A stretch of 15,840 nt of DNA from a virus. The stretch lies in the IMG/VR virus record IMGVR_UViG_3300045988_110782. The stretch is one strand, 5' to 3'. The notes under the pieces were generated by a model. That model worked only from the letters and a program-made list of their open reading frames with translations, was not told the DNA's origin and made no database searches. Position numbers and translations under genes: made by a program. Shown here piece by piece: positions 1 to 15,840 of the stretch (its first letter is position 1; each line of letters opens with the position of its first letter).

Positions 1-291
1 AAAGTTACATAGTCCGTGTAGCGCGGACACTGTTTTCCCCAAAAAGACAAACATACGTTCGATAAATCAGATGTTAAATTCGCTACCTAAAAGTTGATCT
101 ATTCCAATTTGTCAATAGTAAAAATGCACAAAGATCTACTAAATCTTTGTGCATAATGCATATTGATTTTTAAGTTTTCAGACAATTCAACGAGTTTTCA
201 AAGTTGTTTGCACAACACGAAAAAACAGTGTCCGCGGTAGACGGACACTATTAGTCCGTCTAGCACGAACACTTGTTCGATGTGGATAACT
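1..291. repeat. Left inverted terminal repeat (genome terminus)
   Basis: Checked in 10-nt blocks: 1-291 is the reverse complement of 15550-15840. The only mismatch is 249 (T) versus the complement of 15592 (C). Complementarity stops at 292/15549. The terminus 5'-AAAGTT resembles the phi29 terminal AAAGTA. No ORF lies inside. Confidence 0.95.
117..153 (-). terminator. Intrinsic terminator ending the leftward transcription unit, embedded in the left ITR
   Basis: An 11-bp perfect stem, TGCACAAAGAT (125-135) / ATCTTTGTGCA (143-153), with a 7-nt loop. On the minus strand the hairpin is followed directly by TTTTTACT (124-117). It lies about 150 nt downstream of the last minus-strand stop codon (302-304). 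Confidence 0.7.
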
Positions 292-5483: not shown

Positions 5484-5504
5484 AGGGGAGCATTGCACTC
5501 CCCT
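5484..5504 (-). other. GC-rich stem-loop between the capsid and tail-knob genes
   Basis: AGGGGAG (5484-5490) / CTCCCCT (5498-5504), a 7-bp stem with a 7-nt loop. There is no U-run after it on the minus strand; a U-run precedes it. It is therefore more likely an mRNA stability or attenuation element than a full terminator. Confidence 0.4.
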
Positions 5505-5513
5505 CAAAAATCA

Positions 5514-5531
5514 ATGCTTCACGCGAAACAT
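5514..5531. promoter_or_regulatory. Degenerate copy of the 18-bp palindrome family
   Basis: atgCttcacgCgaaacat differs at 2 of 18 positions from ATGTTTCACGTGAAACAT. It lies 1 nt downstream of the capsid stop codon, in the capsid/knob intergenic region. Confidence 0.35.
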
Positions 5532-5532
5532 T

Positions 5533-6810
5533 TTACTGGTTGACTGTGACAGTACCTGTTCCGCTGATCGTGCTATCATATCTTGACGTTGCTTTGACCG
5601 TAAGTGTTGCCGCTTTCTCATCATTTGCAATATGCAAGATATTCGACCCCGGAATAAAACCTGTATACTGGCTTGTCGCGCCCTCTACGTCAAAATCGAG
5701 CATTTGCGGCGTGTACTGGCTATCTCCGGTCACTAACGCTGTAATCTCCACATCAGTTCCCACATTTCCGGCGGTATCTGTAACGCTTACGGTTGTAAGA
5801 CCGACAGTATCTGTAGTAAAAACAATGCAGGGGAAAAACGGAGAATAAGAAAACATTTCGCTCATTGTGTAAAAATAATTCCATGTCAACGCTGCTCCGT
5901 TTCTCGAATCGGTCAGTGTCCGGAAATTCTCACGTACATTAAAAAATCTCATATCAAACAGCGCAAGCTTGATATTGGGGTCGTCAAACTTGTCAATGAT
6001 AATTTTGCGGACATTGATGTCAACTTTATCCATATTAAAGGCTGTTGCAAGCACTTCAACATCTAACTCCGCGTCAATTTCCGGCGTTGTGATATAAAAG
6101 ATTGTCTGATCGTTTGCGCAACTGTCTGCTCCGGCAATGTTGTACTCGGGATGGGGAAATTTCATCTGACCAATGTAAGCCTTTACAAGCTTTGTCAGCT
6201 TCTTCGCGTTTTCTGTGCTCGCTGTAGGGTCTGCAACATTGACCGCATAGAGCTGATCTGCCGCGCTCGCGCTCTCAATCAGACGTTTCATACACAAATA
6301 TTCATCCCAATTTGCCGCCGCAAAAAGACTCTGTACTTTTGCATTGATTAAATCGCGCACACCATATTCCGACCGGAACGCTGTACGCAAGTTGTCAAAA
6401 GTGACTGTAACCGCGTACTGGATAGCGGGCGTGATCTTGTGATACGCCGCCATGACACTTGACTGATAGTAGGCATACAGTTCTGCAACGGTTGCGAACT
6501 GATTAAACTGCTTACCTTTTGCCATGTTGATAAAAATTTCTTCCTCCGTGCCGCCGTAACGCATCGGATCTCTCTTAAGTACTCCAAGGGGATTTTCAAA
6601 AAAGACTGTCTCGATTCTCTGCTCCATAATCTGTTCTACTAATGCGTTAGCGAACGCATTTCGCAACGGAACGATGTTCAGCAAACTTTCGTAGATACTC
6701 GAGATATTCTCTGCTGTTGCTTCCGGTATTCTGTTCTGATACTCCAAACTCTGCATAGATCTTATTGCGTTTAAAATGGCTACGTTCGTAGCCGGAACTT
6801 TGTTACCCAT
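5533..6810 (-). CDS. Major capsid protein, phi29 gp8-like, with C-terminal Ig-like (BIG2-type) domain
   Basis: The ORF track gives 5533..6849. I prefer the ATG at 6810 (MGNKVPATN...) because GAGGAG lies 6 nt upstream and this start avoids overlap with the scaffold gene. Blocks resemble gp8: NVAILNAIRS vs IVNAIRNS; TTPEIDAELDVEVLATAFNMDKVDI vs [26 protein letters not shown]. The C-terminal ~90 aa is beta-rich and Ig-like (ATLTVKATSRYDSTISGTGTVTV), as in gp8. Confidence 0.9.
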   Translation of the reverse strand: MGNKVPATNVAILNAIRSMQSLEYQNRIPEATAENISSIYESLLNIVPLRNAFANALVEQIMEQRIETVFFENPLGVLKRDPMRYGGTEEEIFINMAKGKQFNQFATVAELYAYYQSSVMAAYHKITPAIQYAVTVTFDNLRTAFRSEYGVRDLINAKVQSLFAAANWDEYLCMKRLIESASAADQLYAVNVADPTASTENAKKLTKLVKAYIGQMKFPHPEYNIAGADSCANDQTIFYITTPEIDAELDVEVLATAFNMDKVDINVRKIIIDKFDDPNIKLALFDMRFFNVRENFRTLTDSRNGAALTWNYFYTMSEMFSYSPFFPCIVFTTDTVGLTTVSVTDTAGNVGTDVEITALVTGDSQYTPQMLDFDVEGATSQYTGFIPGSNILHIANDEKAATLTVKATSRYDSTISGTGTVTVNQ

Positions 6811-6823
6811 TTTTTCTCCTCTC

Positions 6824-7114
6824 TTACTCTGTACTGCCGTCAAAGTCAAGCATTTCCGGCGTTACATCTTCTACCACGCCAACATCTGCTTTTGGCTCTT
6901 CGATGTCTGCTTTCGGTGTTTCCTGTCCCGCCAACATTTCGCCAAATCGCGCAATGTACTTTTCGCGCAAGCCCTCATAGCGTTCTTTATAGCCGTCGTC
7001 TGTTACATTTGCGCCACTTCTGATGGATTCCGTAATAACGTTGATTTCTTCGTCCAATTCTTCCGGCGCTTCGATCTTTCCTAAAATCGCTTTCAAAGCT
7101 TCGTCTGCTGTCAT
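6824..7114 (-). CDS. Scaffolding protein (phi29 gp7-like by size, position and composition)
   Basis: 96 aa, highly acidic and helical-looking, located immediately upstream of the capsid gene. The call rests on synteny and composition only. Confidence 0.6.
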   Translation of the reverse strand: MTADEALKAILGKIEAPEELDEEINVITESIRSGANVTDDGYKERYEGLREKYIARFGEMLAGQETPKADIEEPKADVGVVEDVTPEMLDFDGSTE

Positions 7115-9336: not shown

Positions 9337-9408
9337 CTGGACTAGCAGGAATCGAACCCGCATTGACGGAAATCAAAATCCGTTGTCCTACCGTTAGACG
9401 ATAGTCCC
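9337..9408 (-). tRNA. tRNA-Gln(UUG)-like gene with an 8-nt anticodon loop and a G1.A72 mismatch; no encoded CCA
   Basis: Hand-folded cloverleaf of the 72-nt minus strand: GGGACUA UC GUCU AACGGUA GGAC A ACGGA UUUUGAUU UCCGU CAAU GCGGG UUCGAUU CCUGC UAGUCCA G. U8, A14, the GG in the D loop and the UUCGAUU T-loop are all present. The anticodon stem and the A72/G73 end match my recollection of Firmicute tRNA-Gln. The loop has one U more than the canonical 7 nt. Confidence 0.7.
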
Positions 9409-9414
9409 TAGAAA

Positions 9415-9430
9415 TGTTTCACGTGAAACA
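9415..9430. promoter_or_regulatory. Palindrome family copy (16-bp perfect core TGTTTCACGTGAAACA)
   Basis: It lies 4 nt downstream of the holin stop codon and 6 nt upstream of the tRNA 5' end on the minus strand. Confidence 0.5.
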
Positions 9431-9434
9431 CTTC

Positions 9435-9764
9435 TTATTTTTTCGGTGCTTTCTCCAAGATTTCTCTAATCTTTTCCGGCACTAAGCTTTTATTTATCCG
9501 GCTTACATTTTCCAAAATACTGCCGATTTCCATTAAAATAATATAAACGCAAATACTCTCGAGCGCCGGAACTCTAAAGCCCATATCAAGAAAACTCTGC
9601 CCGTAGTCAATCAAAAACCCAACAGCCACAATGACGATTTCGCCGAACTTGTTAAAAAGTCCGTCACGCATCACACTGCTGTTAAAATTACTGTTTTTAA
9701 CTGCCATAACAATTCCGGTAATAAAATCAAGCGCAATAAACAACATTACAATTACAATACTCAT
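9435..9764 (-). CDS. Holin (phage_holin_4_1 / phiLC3-TcdE-like family)
   Basis: The ORF track start at 9794 is a TTG. I prefer the ATG at 9764 (MSIVIVMLFIALDFITGIVMAV...). Three hydrophobic segments are followed by a charged C-terminus (EKIREILEKAPKK). The LDxITG and E..SIlEN motifs are typical of this holin family. Confidence 0.8.
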   Translation of the reverse strand: MSIVIVMLFIALDFITGIVMAVKNSNFNSSVMRDGLFNKFGEIVIVAVGFLIDYGQSFLDMGFRVPALESICVYIILMEIGSILENVSRINKSLVPEKIREILEKAPKK

Positions 9765-10016
9765 TTTTTCTACTCTTTTCTGCGGCGGTAGCAATTAACA
9801 GAATTACCGCCGCGTTGATAGTTTTAGAGTTTCGCGGTATCGGCTCGCACCAACCACGGCGCGGGGCACGGTTTTTCCCGTCGGTTTACGCCCACAAAAA
9901 CCAATCCGGTACTACTCCACACACTCCAATTACTCGGACATAGGACATTTCGTAAAGAATTTAGGAGGAATTTAGTAATTTAAGTGTGTGCAATAGTACC
10001 GTATAAATTATGTTTT

Positions 10017-10109
10017 ATGCCATGTACGGCAAGCCATGCCGCTCCATGCCGGTTTCGCCGTACATGCCATAAATGCCATTTCTACGCCGTGCAATGCCGT
10101 GAATGGCAT
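10017..10109. repeat. Cluster of short iterated ATGCC(AT) motifs
   Basis: ATGCC starts at 10017, 10036, 10046, 10065, 10073 and 10094, with an inverted GGCAT at 10105-10109. Most copies extend to (C)CATGCC or ATGCCAT. Confidence 0.8.
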
Positions 10110-10115
10110 TGCACG
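10086..10115 (-). other. 12-bp perfect hairpin immediately downstream of the SSB-like gene
   Basis: CCGTGCAATGCC gtgaat GGCATTGCACGG begins 6 nt after the stop codon at 10122-10124. No U-tract follows on either strand, so terminator function is uncertain. Confidence 0.4.
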
Positions 10116-10121
10116 GAGATC

Positions 10122-10520
10122 TTACCGATTAAACGGGTTGTACGGTTCTGCGGGAACAAGCTTGGAAATGTCAATTCCCTTGAGGTATGCGCTCTGGTAC
10201 TTCTTTCCCTTGTACTTGCCCTCAACAACCTTAAACGCAATTTCTACTTCGGAATCTGTTCCGATCTCTTCCGCCTTGATTGCTGTTTCATCTTCCGGTT
10301 TCTGCTCAACACCGTCAAGATAAATTGGGAAGTCGAACTGGGTGTGTGCCTTTACAAGCTTTGTGCCGTCATCGGTCGTCTTAATCGGGCAGTCAATCTC
10401 GGTGTTCAGACCCGCTTTTTCGATCAGCTCCGTCGCGGCTTCATCTGTGATCTCTACCATGATGGAAAACTTGCCATCGTTTGAAAATGCGGAATAAACC
10501 TTACCTGTTGCGTATAACAT
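10122..10520 (-). CDS. Putative ssDNA-binding protein (early gene); otherwise hypothetical
   Basis: 132 aa with RBS AAGGAG. It is the last gene of the early block, as SSB/DBP genes are in phi29. The strand/acidic-linker/strand layout (GKVYSAFSNDGKFSIMVEI...EVEIAFKVVEGKYKGKKYQSAYLKGI) is reminiscent of small phage OB-fold SSBs (the phi29 gp5 C-terminus, FKVKVVQGTSSKGNVFFSLQL). The similarity is weak and recalled from memory. Confidence 0.35.
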   Translation of the reverse strand: MLYATGKVYSAFSNDGKFSIMVEITDEAATELIEKAGLNTEIDCPIKTTDDGTKLVKAHTQFDFPIYLDGVEQKPEDETAIKAEEIGTDSEVEIAFKVVEGKYKGKKYQSAYLKGIDISKLVPAEPYNPFNR

Positions 10521-10561
10521 AATTTTTCTCCTTTTCTCTAATTGAATTTAATGGTGCAAGC

Positions 10562-10579
10562 ATGTTTCACGTGAAACAT
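10562..10579. promoter_or_regulatory. Palindrome family copy (18-bp perfect ATGTTTCACGTGAAACAT)
   Basis: It lies in the intergenic region between CDS 10604..10885 and CDS 10122..10520. It is nested inside a second inverted repeat, GCAAGCA (10556-10562) / TGCTTGC (10590-10596). Confidence 0.55.
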
Positions 10580-10603
10580 TTTAAAGTGTTGCTTGCGTGA
10601 TCT

Positions 10604-10885
10604 CTACTTCTTTGACGCTTTGTAGGCATCATACTCTTCTGCTGTCATTGAGTTCTCAATGAACGTGGACAACGGCATAAAGCGGGTTTCCTCTTTCCGG
10701 TCAACCTCAATCAGATTACCCTTTGCAATACCGAAAGACCCTAAAATCTCGTCTCTCTCCGCCGCTGTGGTAATCTCATGATCCCATTCTACAACATCTC
10801 CCATTTTAATACCATCTTCTGCCGATACCGTCATAATCTGGTATAATACTTTTGTTGGGATAGTTCTGGAAATTACCTTTTCCAT
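10604..10885 (-). CDS. Hypothetical early protein (93 aa)
   Basis: An ORF with the conserved early leader AGAAAGAGAGGAAAACAAA directly before the ATG. No family was recognised. Confidence 0.7.
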   Translation of the reverse strand: MEKVISRTIPTKVLYQIMTVSAEDGIKMGDVVEWDHEITTAAERDEILGSFGIAKGNLIEVDRKEETRFMPLSTFIENSMTAEEYDAYKASKK

Positions 10886-11822: not shown

Positions 11823-13997
11823 TTATTCGCAATTATCTATAAAATTTTTTCCTATGATTTCTGAATACTCGTCTGTAATGCCTAAAGTGTAAGTTGTATC
11901 TACTATAGCTATATTTGACGCTGTTGTAAATGTTGATTCTTTACCTATATAATCTGTTATTGTTATCGAATGTATGTTCGATTCATTAAAATAAGACACG
12001 GTTCGTCCAGAATCAGTAAATAACTTTCCTATTTTAAAATCGGCAATTCCGTTTCCGCGCTCTAACTCTGCCGCACCTTTTTGTTTCGATAAACCAGATA
12101 CCGTTACGTGTAAAACATCTTTTCTTATTTCTCCTGTTTTTTTATCTTTGTCATCAGATATATACGCGTACTTTTTAGCTCCAAGCGTTTTAAACTTTTT
12201 ATAGTATCCATCGTCATCCCATACGCCTAAATAATATCTAGTTACCGTTCCATTATCGTTTTTTCGATCTGAATAATTTCTGTAACGTTGATGTTGTGCT
12301 AATAAATACTCATTGCGATCTTTAAAACTTTGTAAGTGTTGTTTATTTATAAATTTAACACTATCAGTGTCAGCGTAAACAAAATCCCATCCTACGGCGT
12401 CTATCATTTTTTGTAATTCCCATCTTGCATTAGCTGTAATGTATACCCCCCATTGATAGAGTAAAAACGAATTTTTTGAAGCTGTATAACTAGCTATTGA
12501 TTCTAACAAATCCGGTGTAACTTTTGTCCACTCTCCGTCTGTGTAAACTATTTCATCATGGCATATGTCTGTAACCATCGTTCCAAAAACAGAATTTAAA
12601 CTGTTTTTACTTTTCATATACTCATATTCTTTTCCGTCAACGTCCTTTAACTGTGTTTTTTTATCGTAAAACTCTAGCATTGTATTTACTATAGGCTCTG
12701 GTAAATAATCTTTTTTTGCCATGTACCCGCTCAACCATTCTATTTCCTCAAAATGGTATTGATTGCAGATAATTATAAAATCTAATTCAGTACAAGCATA
12801 TGTTACCCATTCTGCGGATAACACTCGCCCGTTGTCATTTATGTATTCTTTGCTAAATGATGTACAGTGTGCGAAATCAATATACGGAACTGTCACATCA
12901 TCATGTACTGTTATAGATTTAAACGTTACTTGCATAATGATAGCGTTTTGTTTTTTGTTACAATCAGATAATAATTGTGTAAAGTTTTTTGGTACATACT
13001 CTATAAACGGTGTCATAGGGTATAAGTCCGAGCATATGCATGATGGATAACTTGAGACTCTATCCATACTGTAGACATTCTCAACTATTGCATCTGCGTA
13101 ATATCTACTTGCATGTGTATTGCCGCCGCGAAAAGCTTTTCGTAATAGTGTATATACTTCCGGTGTAGTCATGAGACTTTCAAATAATTCCCTATAATGT
13201 TTGTCCTCTCTGCAAGCTTTGCGCATTTCACGGCGCACATATCCGGTCGATGTTAGCGGTATTGTTGCTAATGTGTCATTATAATCATCCATTTTTGACA
13301 GTATGCATTCTTCAAGCCCTTTTACATCGTTATAATCATATGCTAACTCTGTTCCTGTTTGTGGTGTGTCTGGTGTCCGTACTTTTTTATAATCATATGT
13401 GTCTAGTAATTTTCGATGAATACAAAATTTTGAATTTTCGCAAAACTTTGCTAAACTCATATTAGATAAAAAATATGAACATCTAAACTCAAAATGAGGG
13501 AATGTTTCACGTGAAACATCTAGCCTATTTACTGTTTTTAGATAATCAGATTTTAAACAAGCATTGAATTTTATGACCTTATGGGATTCTCGTGCAAAAA
13601 GTGATACTATATATAAAAAATCCTTTACAAACATAAATTCATAAGCTAAATTATGGACATAAATGACTAATTGTTTTGATGCTGATAATTCCAAGTATTC
13701 TCCTAGTTTACTTAGAAACTTAGTAAATTCTTCCCACCGTGTGCCAAAACAAACATTTCCTTTGTAACAAAACTGCCAATGGTACATAAATGCATAAGGT
13801 TTTTCGCTGTTTATTGTTGTAGTTTCTATATCAAATGTTGCAGGGCTATCTATATAAGCAATAGCCCTTTTTCCTTTTTTTCTGACTGTAGTATAATTCC
13901 AATTTATTGCGTTATATGGATAATCGTATACTGTGTAAACTGTTTCATTTTTTGTATATTCTTTCCCATTTTCTGTATAAAATGTTTGTACTACCAT
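11823..13997 (-). CDS. Family-B DNA polymerase, protein-primed (phi29 gp2-like)
   Basis: 724 aa. Motifs: Exo I FDIETT; Exo II HNLAYEF; Exo III YDYNDV; motif A DRVSSYPS (Dx2SLYP type); motif B KNSLNSVFG (Kx3NSxYG); motif C YADTDS; and KKY (KxY). Its ATG overlaps the stop of the upstream ORF (ATGGTAG). Confidence 0.95.
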   Translation of the reverse strand: MVVQTFYTENGKEYTKNETVYTVYDYPYNAINWNYTTVRKKGKRAIAYIDSPATFDIETTTINSEKPYAFMYHWQFCYKGNVCFGTRWEEFTKFLSKLGEYLELSASKQLVIYVHNLAYEFMFVKDFLYIVSLFARESHKVIKFNACLKSDYLKTVNRLDVSRETFPHFEFRCSYFLSNMSLAKFCENSKFCIHRKLLDTYDYKKVRTPDTPQTGTELAYDYNDVKGLEECILSKMDDYNDTLATIPLTSTGYVRREMRKACREDKHYRELFESLMTTPEVYTLLRKAFRGGNTHASRYYADAIVENVYSMDRVSSYPSCICSDLYPMTPFIEYVPKNFTQLLSDCNKKQNAIIMQVTFKSITVHDDVTVPYIDFAHCTSFSKEYINDNGRVLSAEWVTYACTELDFIIICNQYHFEEIEWLSGYMAKKDYLPEPIVNTMLEFYDKKTQLKDVDGKEYEYMKSKNSLNSVFGTMVTDICHDEIVYTDGEWTKVTPDLLESIASYTASKNSFLLYQWGVYITANARWELQKMIDAVGWDFVYADTDSVKFINKQHLQSFKDRNEYLLAQHQRYRNYSDRKNDNGTVTRYYLGVWDDDGYYKKFKTLGAKKYAYISDDKDKKTGEIRKDVLHVTVSGLSKQKGAAELERGNGIADFKIGKLFTDSGRTVSYFNESNIHSITITDYIGKESTFTTASNIAIVDTTYTLGITDEYSEIIGKNFIDNCE
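13502..13519. promoter_or_regulatory. Palindrome family copy (18-bp perfect) inside the polymerase CDS
   Basis: ATGTTTCACGTGAAACAT at 13502-13519 is identical to the copy at 10562-10579. In the polymerase frame it encodes part of DVSRETF. Confidence 0.5.
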
Positions 13998-15549: not shown

Positions 15550-15840
15550 AGTTATCCACATCGAACAAGTGTTCGTGCTAGACGGACTAATGGTGTCCGT
15601 CTACCGCGGACACTGTTTTTTCGTGTTGTGCAAACAACTTTGAAAACTCGTTGAATTGTCTGAAAACTTAAAAATCAATATGCATTATGCACAAAGATTT
15701 AGTAGATCTTTGTGCATTTTTACTATTGACAAATTGGAATAGATCAACTTTTAGGTAGCGAATTTAACATCTGATTTATCGAACGTATGTTTGTCTTTTT
15801 GGGGAAAACAGTGTCCGCGCTACACGGACTATGTAACTTT
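15550..15840. repeat. Right inverted terminal repeat (genome terminus)
   Basis: Reverse complement of 1-291 with a single mismatch (15592). The window ends ...ATGTAACTTT-3'. Confidence 0.95.
15688..15724 (+). terminator. Mirror copy of the ITR terminator hairpin, facing outward
   Basis: The same 11-bp stem (15688-15698/15706-15716) is followed by TTTTTACT on the plus strand. No plus-strand gene lies upstream, so it is probably present only because it is part of the ITR. Confidence 0.4.

Follow-up and report, generated by a model that had tools for sequence, protein, structure and literature searches.

The palindrome repeated in this viral genome is, judged by its letters, a host-type chromosomal parS "centromere" site, of which three copies are intact and one is decaying. 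The genome, IMG/VR record IMGVR_UViG_3300045988_110782, is a linear and complete stretch of 15,840 nt, referred to below as the window. The chromosomal parS consensus TGTTNCACGTGAAACA is the site of ParB/Spo0J (PMC7022226). Three of the cores read TGTTTCACGTGAAACA, a full match to this consensus, and the fourth matches at 14/16 positions. A striking repeat is thus explained without invoking a new element. Host ParB is likely to load on these sites, which would couple the phage genome to chromosome segregation. parAB is present in most bacteria outside a few families according to a review (PMC7022226).

Gene content and the repeated palindrome

The left terminal inverted repeat of the window (1-291) has its partner at 15550-15840, and the two 291 nt arms are 100% complementary. 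In the ORF list of the whole 15.8 kb, every long ORF lies on the minus strand. Pfam matches were obtained to Phi29_MCP, connector gp10, tail knob gp9, the gp16 packaging ATPase, tail lysozyme and holin, and the endolysin was classified as Amidase_3 by the same database. The PHROGs contributed the DNA polymerase and the lower collar. The polymerase ORF (11823-13997, minus strand, 724 aa) matched PHROG 1907, DNA polymerase, with an E value of 3e-54. Its translation shows FDIETTT and YADTDS motifs, and its orthologues in relatives match PF03175 (DNA_pol_B_2). The 291-bp ITRs together with the phi29-type Pfam and PHROG genes mark the window, at the level of sequence, as the whole genome of a phi29-like, protein-primed podophage.

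Megablast of the whole genome against cultured phages gave no match. The capsid protein is 27% identical to that of phi29, and the nearest cultured capsid relatives (~28-33% identity) belong to phages of human-gut Hungatella, Clostridium symbiosum and C. innocuum. The nearest endolysins are those of phages of Clostridia and Bacillus. No close relative of the capsid protein was found in 185,579 species genomes; a capsid profile run against the same set returned only mixed-binning MAG contigs, none of them close, and no host call. An exact-protein look-up with two start choices showed that an identical capsid protein is not on record. The host is probably a gut Clostridia-type bacterium. The lineage was present in 162 collection blocks, always on contigs ≤20 kb, so it was never seen integrated, which fits a non-integrating lifestyle.

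The two terminal ORFs (302-1216 and 1203-2108) contain in-frame tandem repeats at 632-1177, 1539-1652 and 1677-1802, with units of 54 nt (8 copies), 33 nt and 21 nt. These ORFs differ among relatives in length and domains, with a GDSL-lipase domain instead in some, and likely encode receptor-binding or appendage proteins. The program-made TTG starts of the ORFs at 9435-9794 and 5533-6849 are probably too far upstream; gene calls in relatives give a holin of 109 aa and a capsid protein of 425 aa with its start ATG at 6810.

The whole genome was searched for the 18-mer ATGTTTCACGTGAAACAT with ≤3 mismatches, which generated exactly four matches. The exact 18-mer occurs twice, at 10562-10579 and 13502-13519. 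A 17/18 copy at 9414-9431 has a perfect 16-bp core (9415-9430), and a 16/18 copy at 5514-5531 has a core that matches at 14/16. Dinucleotide shuffles produced a mean of 0.01 matches each, and four matches were reached in 0/200. The initial annotation had claimed both this recurrence and its negligible probability by chance, and all four copies and the estimate are confirmed. It had also suggested a restriction or methylation relationship for CACGTG, which is a type II restriction site, but no bias was found. CACGTG occurs 3 times vs 2.8 expected, neither depleted nor enriched, and only within the three intact parS cores, and the conservation described below spans all 16 bp. Given these counts and the 0/200 shuffles, it is exceedingly improbable that the repeat is chance recurrence or a restriction or methylation footprint.

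Site A (13502-13519), a perfect parS with core 13503-13518 (TGTTTCACGTGAAACA), lies within the DNA polymerase gene and is read as V-S-R-E-T in the 724-aa ORF. Site B (10562-10579, core 10563-10578), also perfect, separates the genes for p93 (10604-10885) and p132 (10122-10520), beginning 24 nt past the upstream stop codon. Site C (9414-9431), with the perfect core 9415-9430, begins 3 nt past the holin stop codon and is just upstream of a tRNA gene. Site D (5514-5531) is a degenerate parS, core TGCTTCACGCGAAACA (14/16), in the capsid/tail-knob gap, 1 nt past the capsid gene stop and ~45 nt ahead of the tail-knob gene start. Placement of the copies in gene gaps, as first described, is therefore correct for the three at 5514, 9414 and 10562 but not for the copy at 13502, whose position in the polymerase ORF had been overlooked.

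The nesting of the 10562 copy in a second inverted repeat is real. The arms GCAAGCA and TGCTTGC lie at 10556-10562 and 10590-10596 (minus strand), with a folding energy of -13.9 kcal/mol as RNA (z -2.96). They are mostly retained in relatives; the changes seen there affect one arm at a time (GCGAGCA, TGCTCGC) and give no information on covariation.

A phage protein was considered as the binding partner. The palindrome could be an operator for a phage-encoded dimeric regulator of module boundaries, since three copies sit at gene-module boundaries and the window encodes small early proteins without an assigned function. ParB or HTH domains had no Pfam match in the 19 ORFs and none by PHROGs in 10 of them, and p57, p62, p69, p81, p93, p132 and p165 had no Pfam or PHROG match. 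By tblastn, the small early proteins found matches in only one close relative, L029 (p62, p81, p93 and p132), among the phi29-like loci bearing the 18-mer. The palindrome thus recurs in phages that share no small early proteins with this genome. With no recognisable phage DNA-binding protein and with early proteins that are unshared, the binder must be a widespread host factor, which fits ParB. The operator reading also has to contend with a core identical to the universal bacterial parS, with one copy inside the polymerase gene, and with recurrence of the 16-mer in phages with ~30% capsid identity, in phi29, in CPQ1 and in an inovirus.

Promoter positions bear on the same question. Three sigma-70-type consensus promoters were predicted (15527-15499, 11818-11790 and 11513-11486), and none overlaps any copy, which argues against an operator role. 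It had been stated that no promoter-like hexamers overlap the copies; no strong promoter lies over any of them, but a weak 9/12 match, whose -10 hexamer ends at 10578, touches the 10562 copy. We regard an operator for a phage-encoded regulator as very unlikely. What stands of the earlier suggestion of a dimeric-protein operator is a selected site of the kind bound by dimeric DNA-binding proteins; its proposed partner, a small early phage protein, does not fit a core that is parS.

Two related candidates were rejected. The consensus of the Noc-binding site (NBS) is ATTTCCCGGGAAAT; the copies center on CACGTG, not CCCGGG. A self-encoded ParABS cassette was discarded as no ParA or ParB was found among 19 ORFs (Pfam) or 10 ORFs (PHROGs).

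Conservation of the sites and neighbouring RNA features

To follow the sites across related phages, 34 near-complete relatives were selected by capsid protein (95-99% identity) and not by motif. Ten further genomes came from independent ENA and Logan samples, giving 44 relatives altogether. Site A was perfect in 23/30 close relatives that cover it and had one mismatch in 7/30; in the 10 extra genomes it was perfect in 9/10 with one mismatch in 1/10. The site is kept even where the polymerase protein is only ~72% identical, and 81% of its columns are invariant vs 53% flanking. The site B 16-mer was perfect in 30/30 aligned close relatives and in 10/10 extra genomes, with 100% invariant columns vs 58% flanking. 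Site C was perfect in 29/31 aligned relatives and stays constant while the neighbouring tRNA alters its identity; like A and B, it is also present in the 10 extra genomes. Sites A-C together have 81-100% invariant columns vs 51-58% in their flanks, where 42-49% of columns vary. A search of related phages, one of the checks put forward in the initial annotation, thus found sites A-C near-invariant in 44 relatives. Read from these alignments, the DNA sequence of the three sites is under strong purifying selection. The position of site D was perfect in 3 relatives, had 1-2 mismatches in 7, and carried an extra base or a clean deletion in the rest. Site D is probably weak or defunct in this genome.

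An RNA hairpin on long minus-strand transcripts would offer a different reason for conservation: it could process, stabilise or attenuate mRNA, for example by setting where the tRNA or the capsid mRNA ends. The genes are all on one strand, three copies lie just past stop codons and one of these adjoins a tRNA, and the sites in relatives frequently flank the scaffold-capsid module; an intergenic position beside highly expressed genes could hint at a role at the RNA level. The palindrome does fold (8-11 bp, -7 to -12 kcal/mol), but folding is expected of any palindrome and site D has a z of only -0.5. No U-tract follows, and one copy is within coding sequence. Motif variants in relatives are always single-sided with no compensatory pair, which indicates that the sequence is conserved and not the helix. 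The ACGU loop is as invariant as the stem, whereas a nearby GC-rich hairpin at 5484-5504 does show compensatory changes. The 7-bp stem with an ACGU loop proposed at first therefore loses its footing, and an RNA hairpin would leave the parS identity across unrelated phages unexplained. We consider this reading highly unlikely. An intrinsic terminator was rejected because the stem is AU-rich, no T-run follows any of the four copies, and the copies were absent from a terminator scan. A search of Rfam at E≤1 found only tRNA and spurious miRNA matches, none at the sites.

The tRNA gene by site C (9337-9408, minus strand) has an 8-nt anticodon loop, for which ARAGORN gives the anticodon 'ttga'. Among the 34 close relatives, the tRNA at this position was called as tRNA-Gln UUG in 13 and as a UUA 'stop'/ochre-suppressor type in 6; it had an 8-nt loop in 6 and a 6-nt loop in 8, and none was called in 4. 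The polymorphic tRNA could have suppressor or recoding activity, or could be a decaying gene.

Between the p132 gene and the holin, 327 nt at 9795-10121 (minus strand, probably extending to ~9765) contain no credible ORF. The segment folds at -130.6 kcal/mol (z -7.5), a value equalled by 0/100 shuffles. Across 9 genomes its conservation is very high, and a long hairpin within it has three compensatory base pairs. It had no Rfam match. We classify it as a structured RNA candidate that may be the packaging RNA of this phi29-like phage.

The GC-rich hairpin at 5484-5504 (AGGGGAG-loop-CTCCCCT) lies 10 nt away from site D in the gap that follows the capsid stop and precedes the tail-knob start. Its folding energy as RNA is -16.6 kcal/mol (z -4.4), and it is retained in relatives by the compensatory variants GGGGGC/GCCCCC, GGGAG/CTCCC and GGGGC/GCCCC. 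No T-run lies downstream of it.

parS sites in other phages

The exact 18-mer was found in >120 IMG/VR contigs, 42 of which are phi29-like by tblastn. Seventy distant phi29-like contigs with capsids 30-38% identical served as an unbiased sample. At least one perfect parS was present in 20/70, for a total of 29 perfect sites in 0.95 Mb where ~0.002 are expected by chance (our own estimate). The other 50/70 are parS-free, which indicates that parS is dispensable for this phage type. Among MAG-binned phi29-like contigs, 4/73 have perfect sites, up to six apiece. The cultured phages of Hungatella, C. symbiosum and C. innocuum have one perfect parS each, and seven sites occur in gene gaps of C. perfringens phage CPQ1, four perfect and three with one mismatch. 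Genome scans of Streptococcus phage Cp-1 and Curtobacterium phage Reje found no parS.

A parS immediately following the capsid gene, at times in tandem, is also seen in distant relatives, and this placement is either an insertion hot spot used repeatedly or a favoured architecture. Sites are frequently directly 3' of the capsid gene or ~400-500 nt 5' of it (contigs L184, L193, L197, L229 and L276, and CPQ1, which is L310). Tandem copies 25-30 bp apart are frequent, with up to four in a row, in L276.

Outside the phi29-like phages, INPHARED contains 320 cultured or deposited phage records with parS-like matches, which include Microbacterium, Gordonia, Arthrobacter and Lactobacillus plantarum phages. 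C. sporogenes siphophages and Roseobacter phages are also among them. In Butyrivibrio virus Arian the parS is covered by an annotated predicted-promoter feature. The records 'Listeria phage LM 4-11-1/4-14-1' resemble fragmented assemblies and may include host DNA. In the unrelated, higher-GC viral contigs L011 (8615-9325) and L022 (8761-10575), long ORFs carry the 18-mer at their 5' ends, where it would read M-F-H-V-K-H if the putative ORF starts hold.

A rodent-gut inovirus, bajarodino virus 6 (PQ006135.1, L308, 5910 bp), has six perfect parS sites, starting at 635, 662, 1414, 2857, 4096 and 5628. Three are 0-1 nt past an annotated stop, two are at 19 and 46 nt, and one is within a CDS. These sites suggest ParB-assisted inheritance of an episomal form. 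On the more tentative reading given below, the borrowing of parS would appear to have been acquired independently many times, filamentous phages included. No earlier report of parS in gut or Clostridium phi29-like phages was found in the literature, which is not proof of absence. What is new here is the strict conservation of parS in an abundant uncultured human-gut lineage and its spread among Clostridia phi29-like phages.

Proposed role and comparison with known systems

The proposed mechanism is drawn by analogy with phi29 and established ParB biology. After injection, dimers of host ParB (Spo0J) would recognise the 16-bp sites, load as CTP-dependent clamps and spread along the 15.8-kb linear DNA. 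The phage genome would thereby be tied to the origin-positioning machinery (ParA/Soj, SMC). A non-lysing genome could then travel with the chromosome, entering the forespore if the Clostridia-type host sporulates or passing to daughter cells in a carrier state. We infer both ParB binding to these sites and the payoff in segregation or spore entrapment from the analogy. The presence of host-type parS in phages of non-sporulating hosts (Microbacterium, Gordonia, Arthrobacter and Lactobacillus, for instance) and in an inovirus means that spore entrapment cannot be the sole use, and coupling to host segregation is more likely the general function than spore entrapment as such.

ParB could also be bound for a different end. 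Hundreds of replicating genomes, each with 3-4 sites, might titrate ParB/SMC from the origin and so perturb the host by disturbing chromosome organisation or division, or the sites might recruit SMC/ParB to organise a phage replication factory. The density of sites is very high (4 per 15.8 kb vs 10 in the B. subtilis chromosome), Spo0A boxes that could stop lytic growth are absent, and parS also occurs in phages of non-sporulating hosts, all of which would suit titration. However, no report of such a role was found, the phi29 evidence in PMC2731898 favours prespore segregation, and strict conservation at three particular positions is not obviously demanded by titration. We judge this use of ParB unlikely.

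Host ParB coupling, our preferred reading, would extend the hitch-hiking strategy of phi29 to an abundant, uncultured human-gut phage lineage and to many of its distant relatives. Should host ParB load on the sites, seemingly lytic gut podophages could survive unnoticed in spores or in dividing cells, which would matter for phage ecology, for spore-based transmission of gut Clostridia and for phage therapy directed at spore-formers, C. perfringens among them. More tentatively, virulent-looking small phi29-like phages of gut Clostridia and C. perfringens might routinely borrow the host ParB-parS system, so that their terminal-protein-capped linear genomes are inherited like mini-chromosomes or locked in endospores, with lytic shut-off in the present lineage achieved without Spo0A boxes; we hold this broader idea to be possible and would sooner doubt it than assume it. 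If it were true, spores would be a vehicle for phage persistence and person-to-person transmission. The parS sites would serve as a simple sequence marker for phages using such a strategy.

Chromosomal parS has the same 16-bp sequence. The B. subtilis chromosome has 10 such sites (PMC7022226). The sites in the window differ in that they are on a 15.8-kb viral genome and not around oriC, with no parAB operon in cis and at a density roughly a thousand times higher.

The plasmid-prophages P1 and N15 and some mycobacteriophages encode their own ParA and ParB with their own specific sites. As in these ParABS systems, centromere-like repeats would serve segregation of an extrachromosomal phage genome, but ParA and ParB are both missing here and it is the site of the host that has been copied.

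CPQ1, which belongs to the Brucesealvirus CP7R species, resembles the present phage in being a small phi29-like phage with several host-type parS in gene gaps, and its host is a spore-former. Unlike the present genome, it has seven sites, mostly in pairs 25-26 bp apart, and a SpoVG-like gene. A term search of the 2012 paper on PhiCP7R, PhiCPV4 and PhiZP2, related podoviruses of C. perfringens, found parS, Spo0J and Spo0A unmentioned.

The closest comparison is with phi29 itself. Five parS sites are reported in the phi29 genome in PMC2731898, which, summarising Meijer et al. 2005, implicates Spo0J in segregating the phi29 genome into the prespore and trapping it in spores. Our scan of the phi29 reference genome gave four perfect TGTTCCACGTGAAACA sites, at 10445, 15903, 17243 and 18760, and one phi29 parS sits 1 nt past the gp16 stop. 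The two phages differ in several respects. The phi29 site is TGTTCCACGTGAAACA, whereas the fully palindromic TGTTTCACGTGAAACA is used here. Spo0A boxes (TGTCGAA) number 0 in the window vs 2.1-2.25 expected, and TGNCGAA is likewise not enriched. In the phi29 control, by contrast, 6 were counted, of which five cluster close to the early promoters annotated as A2c and C2. Thus the part of the phi29 strategy that shuts off the lytic cycle is not evident here. All genes of the present phage are on one strand, and its host is probably a gut Clostridia-type bacterium, whereas phi29 is a Bacillus phage. The likenesses are that both are phi29-type protein-primed podophages without a ParB of their own, and that both genomes contain multiple host-type parS 16-mers in coding and intergenic DNA. 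The phi29 precedent therefore assigns the palindrome to a known kind of element.
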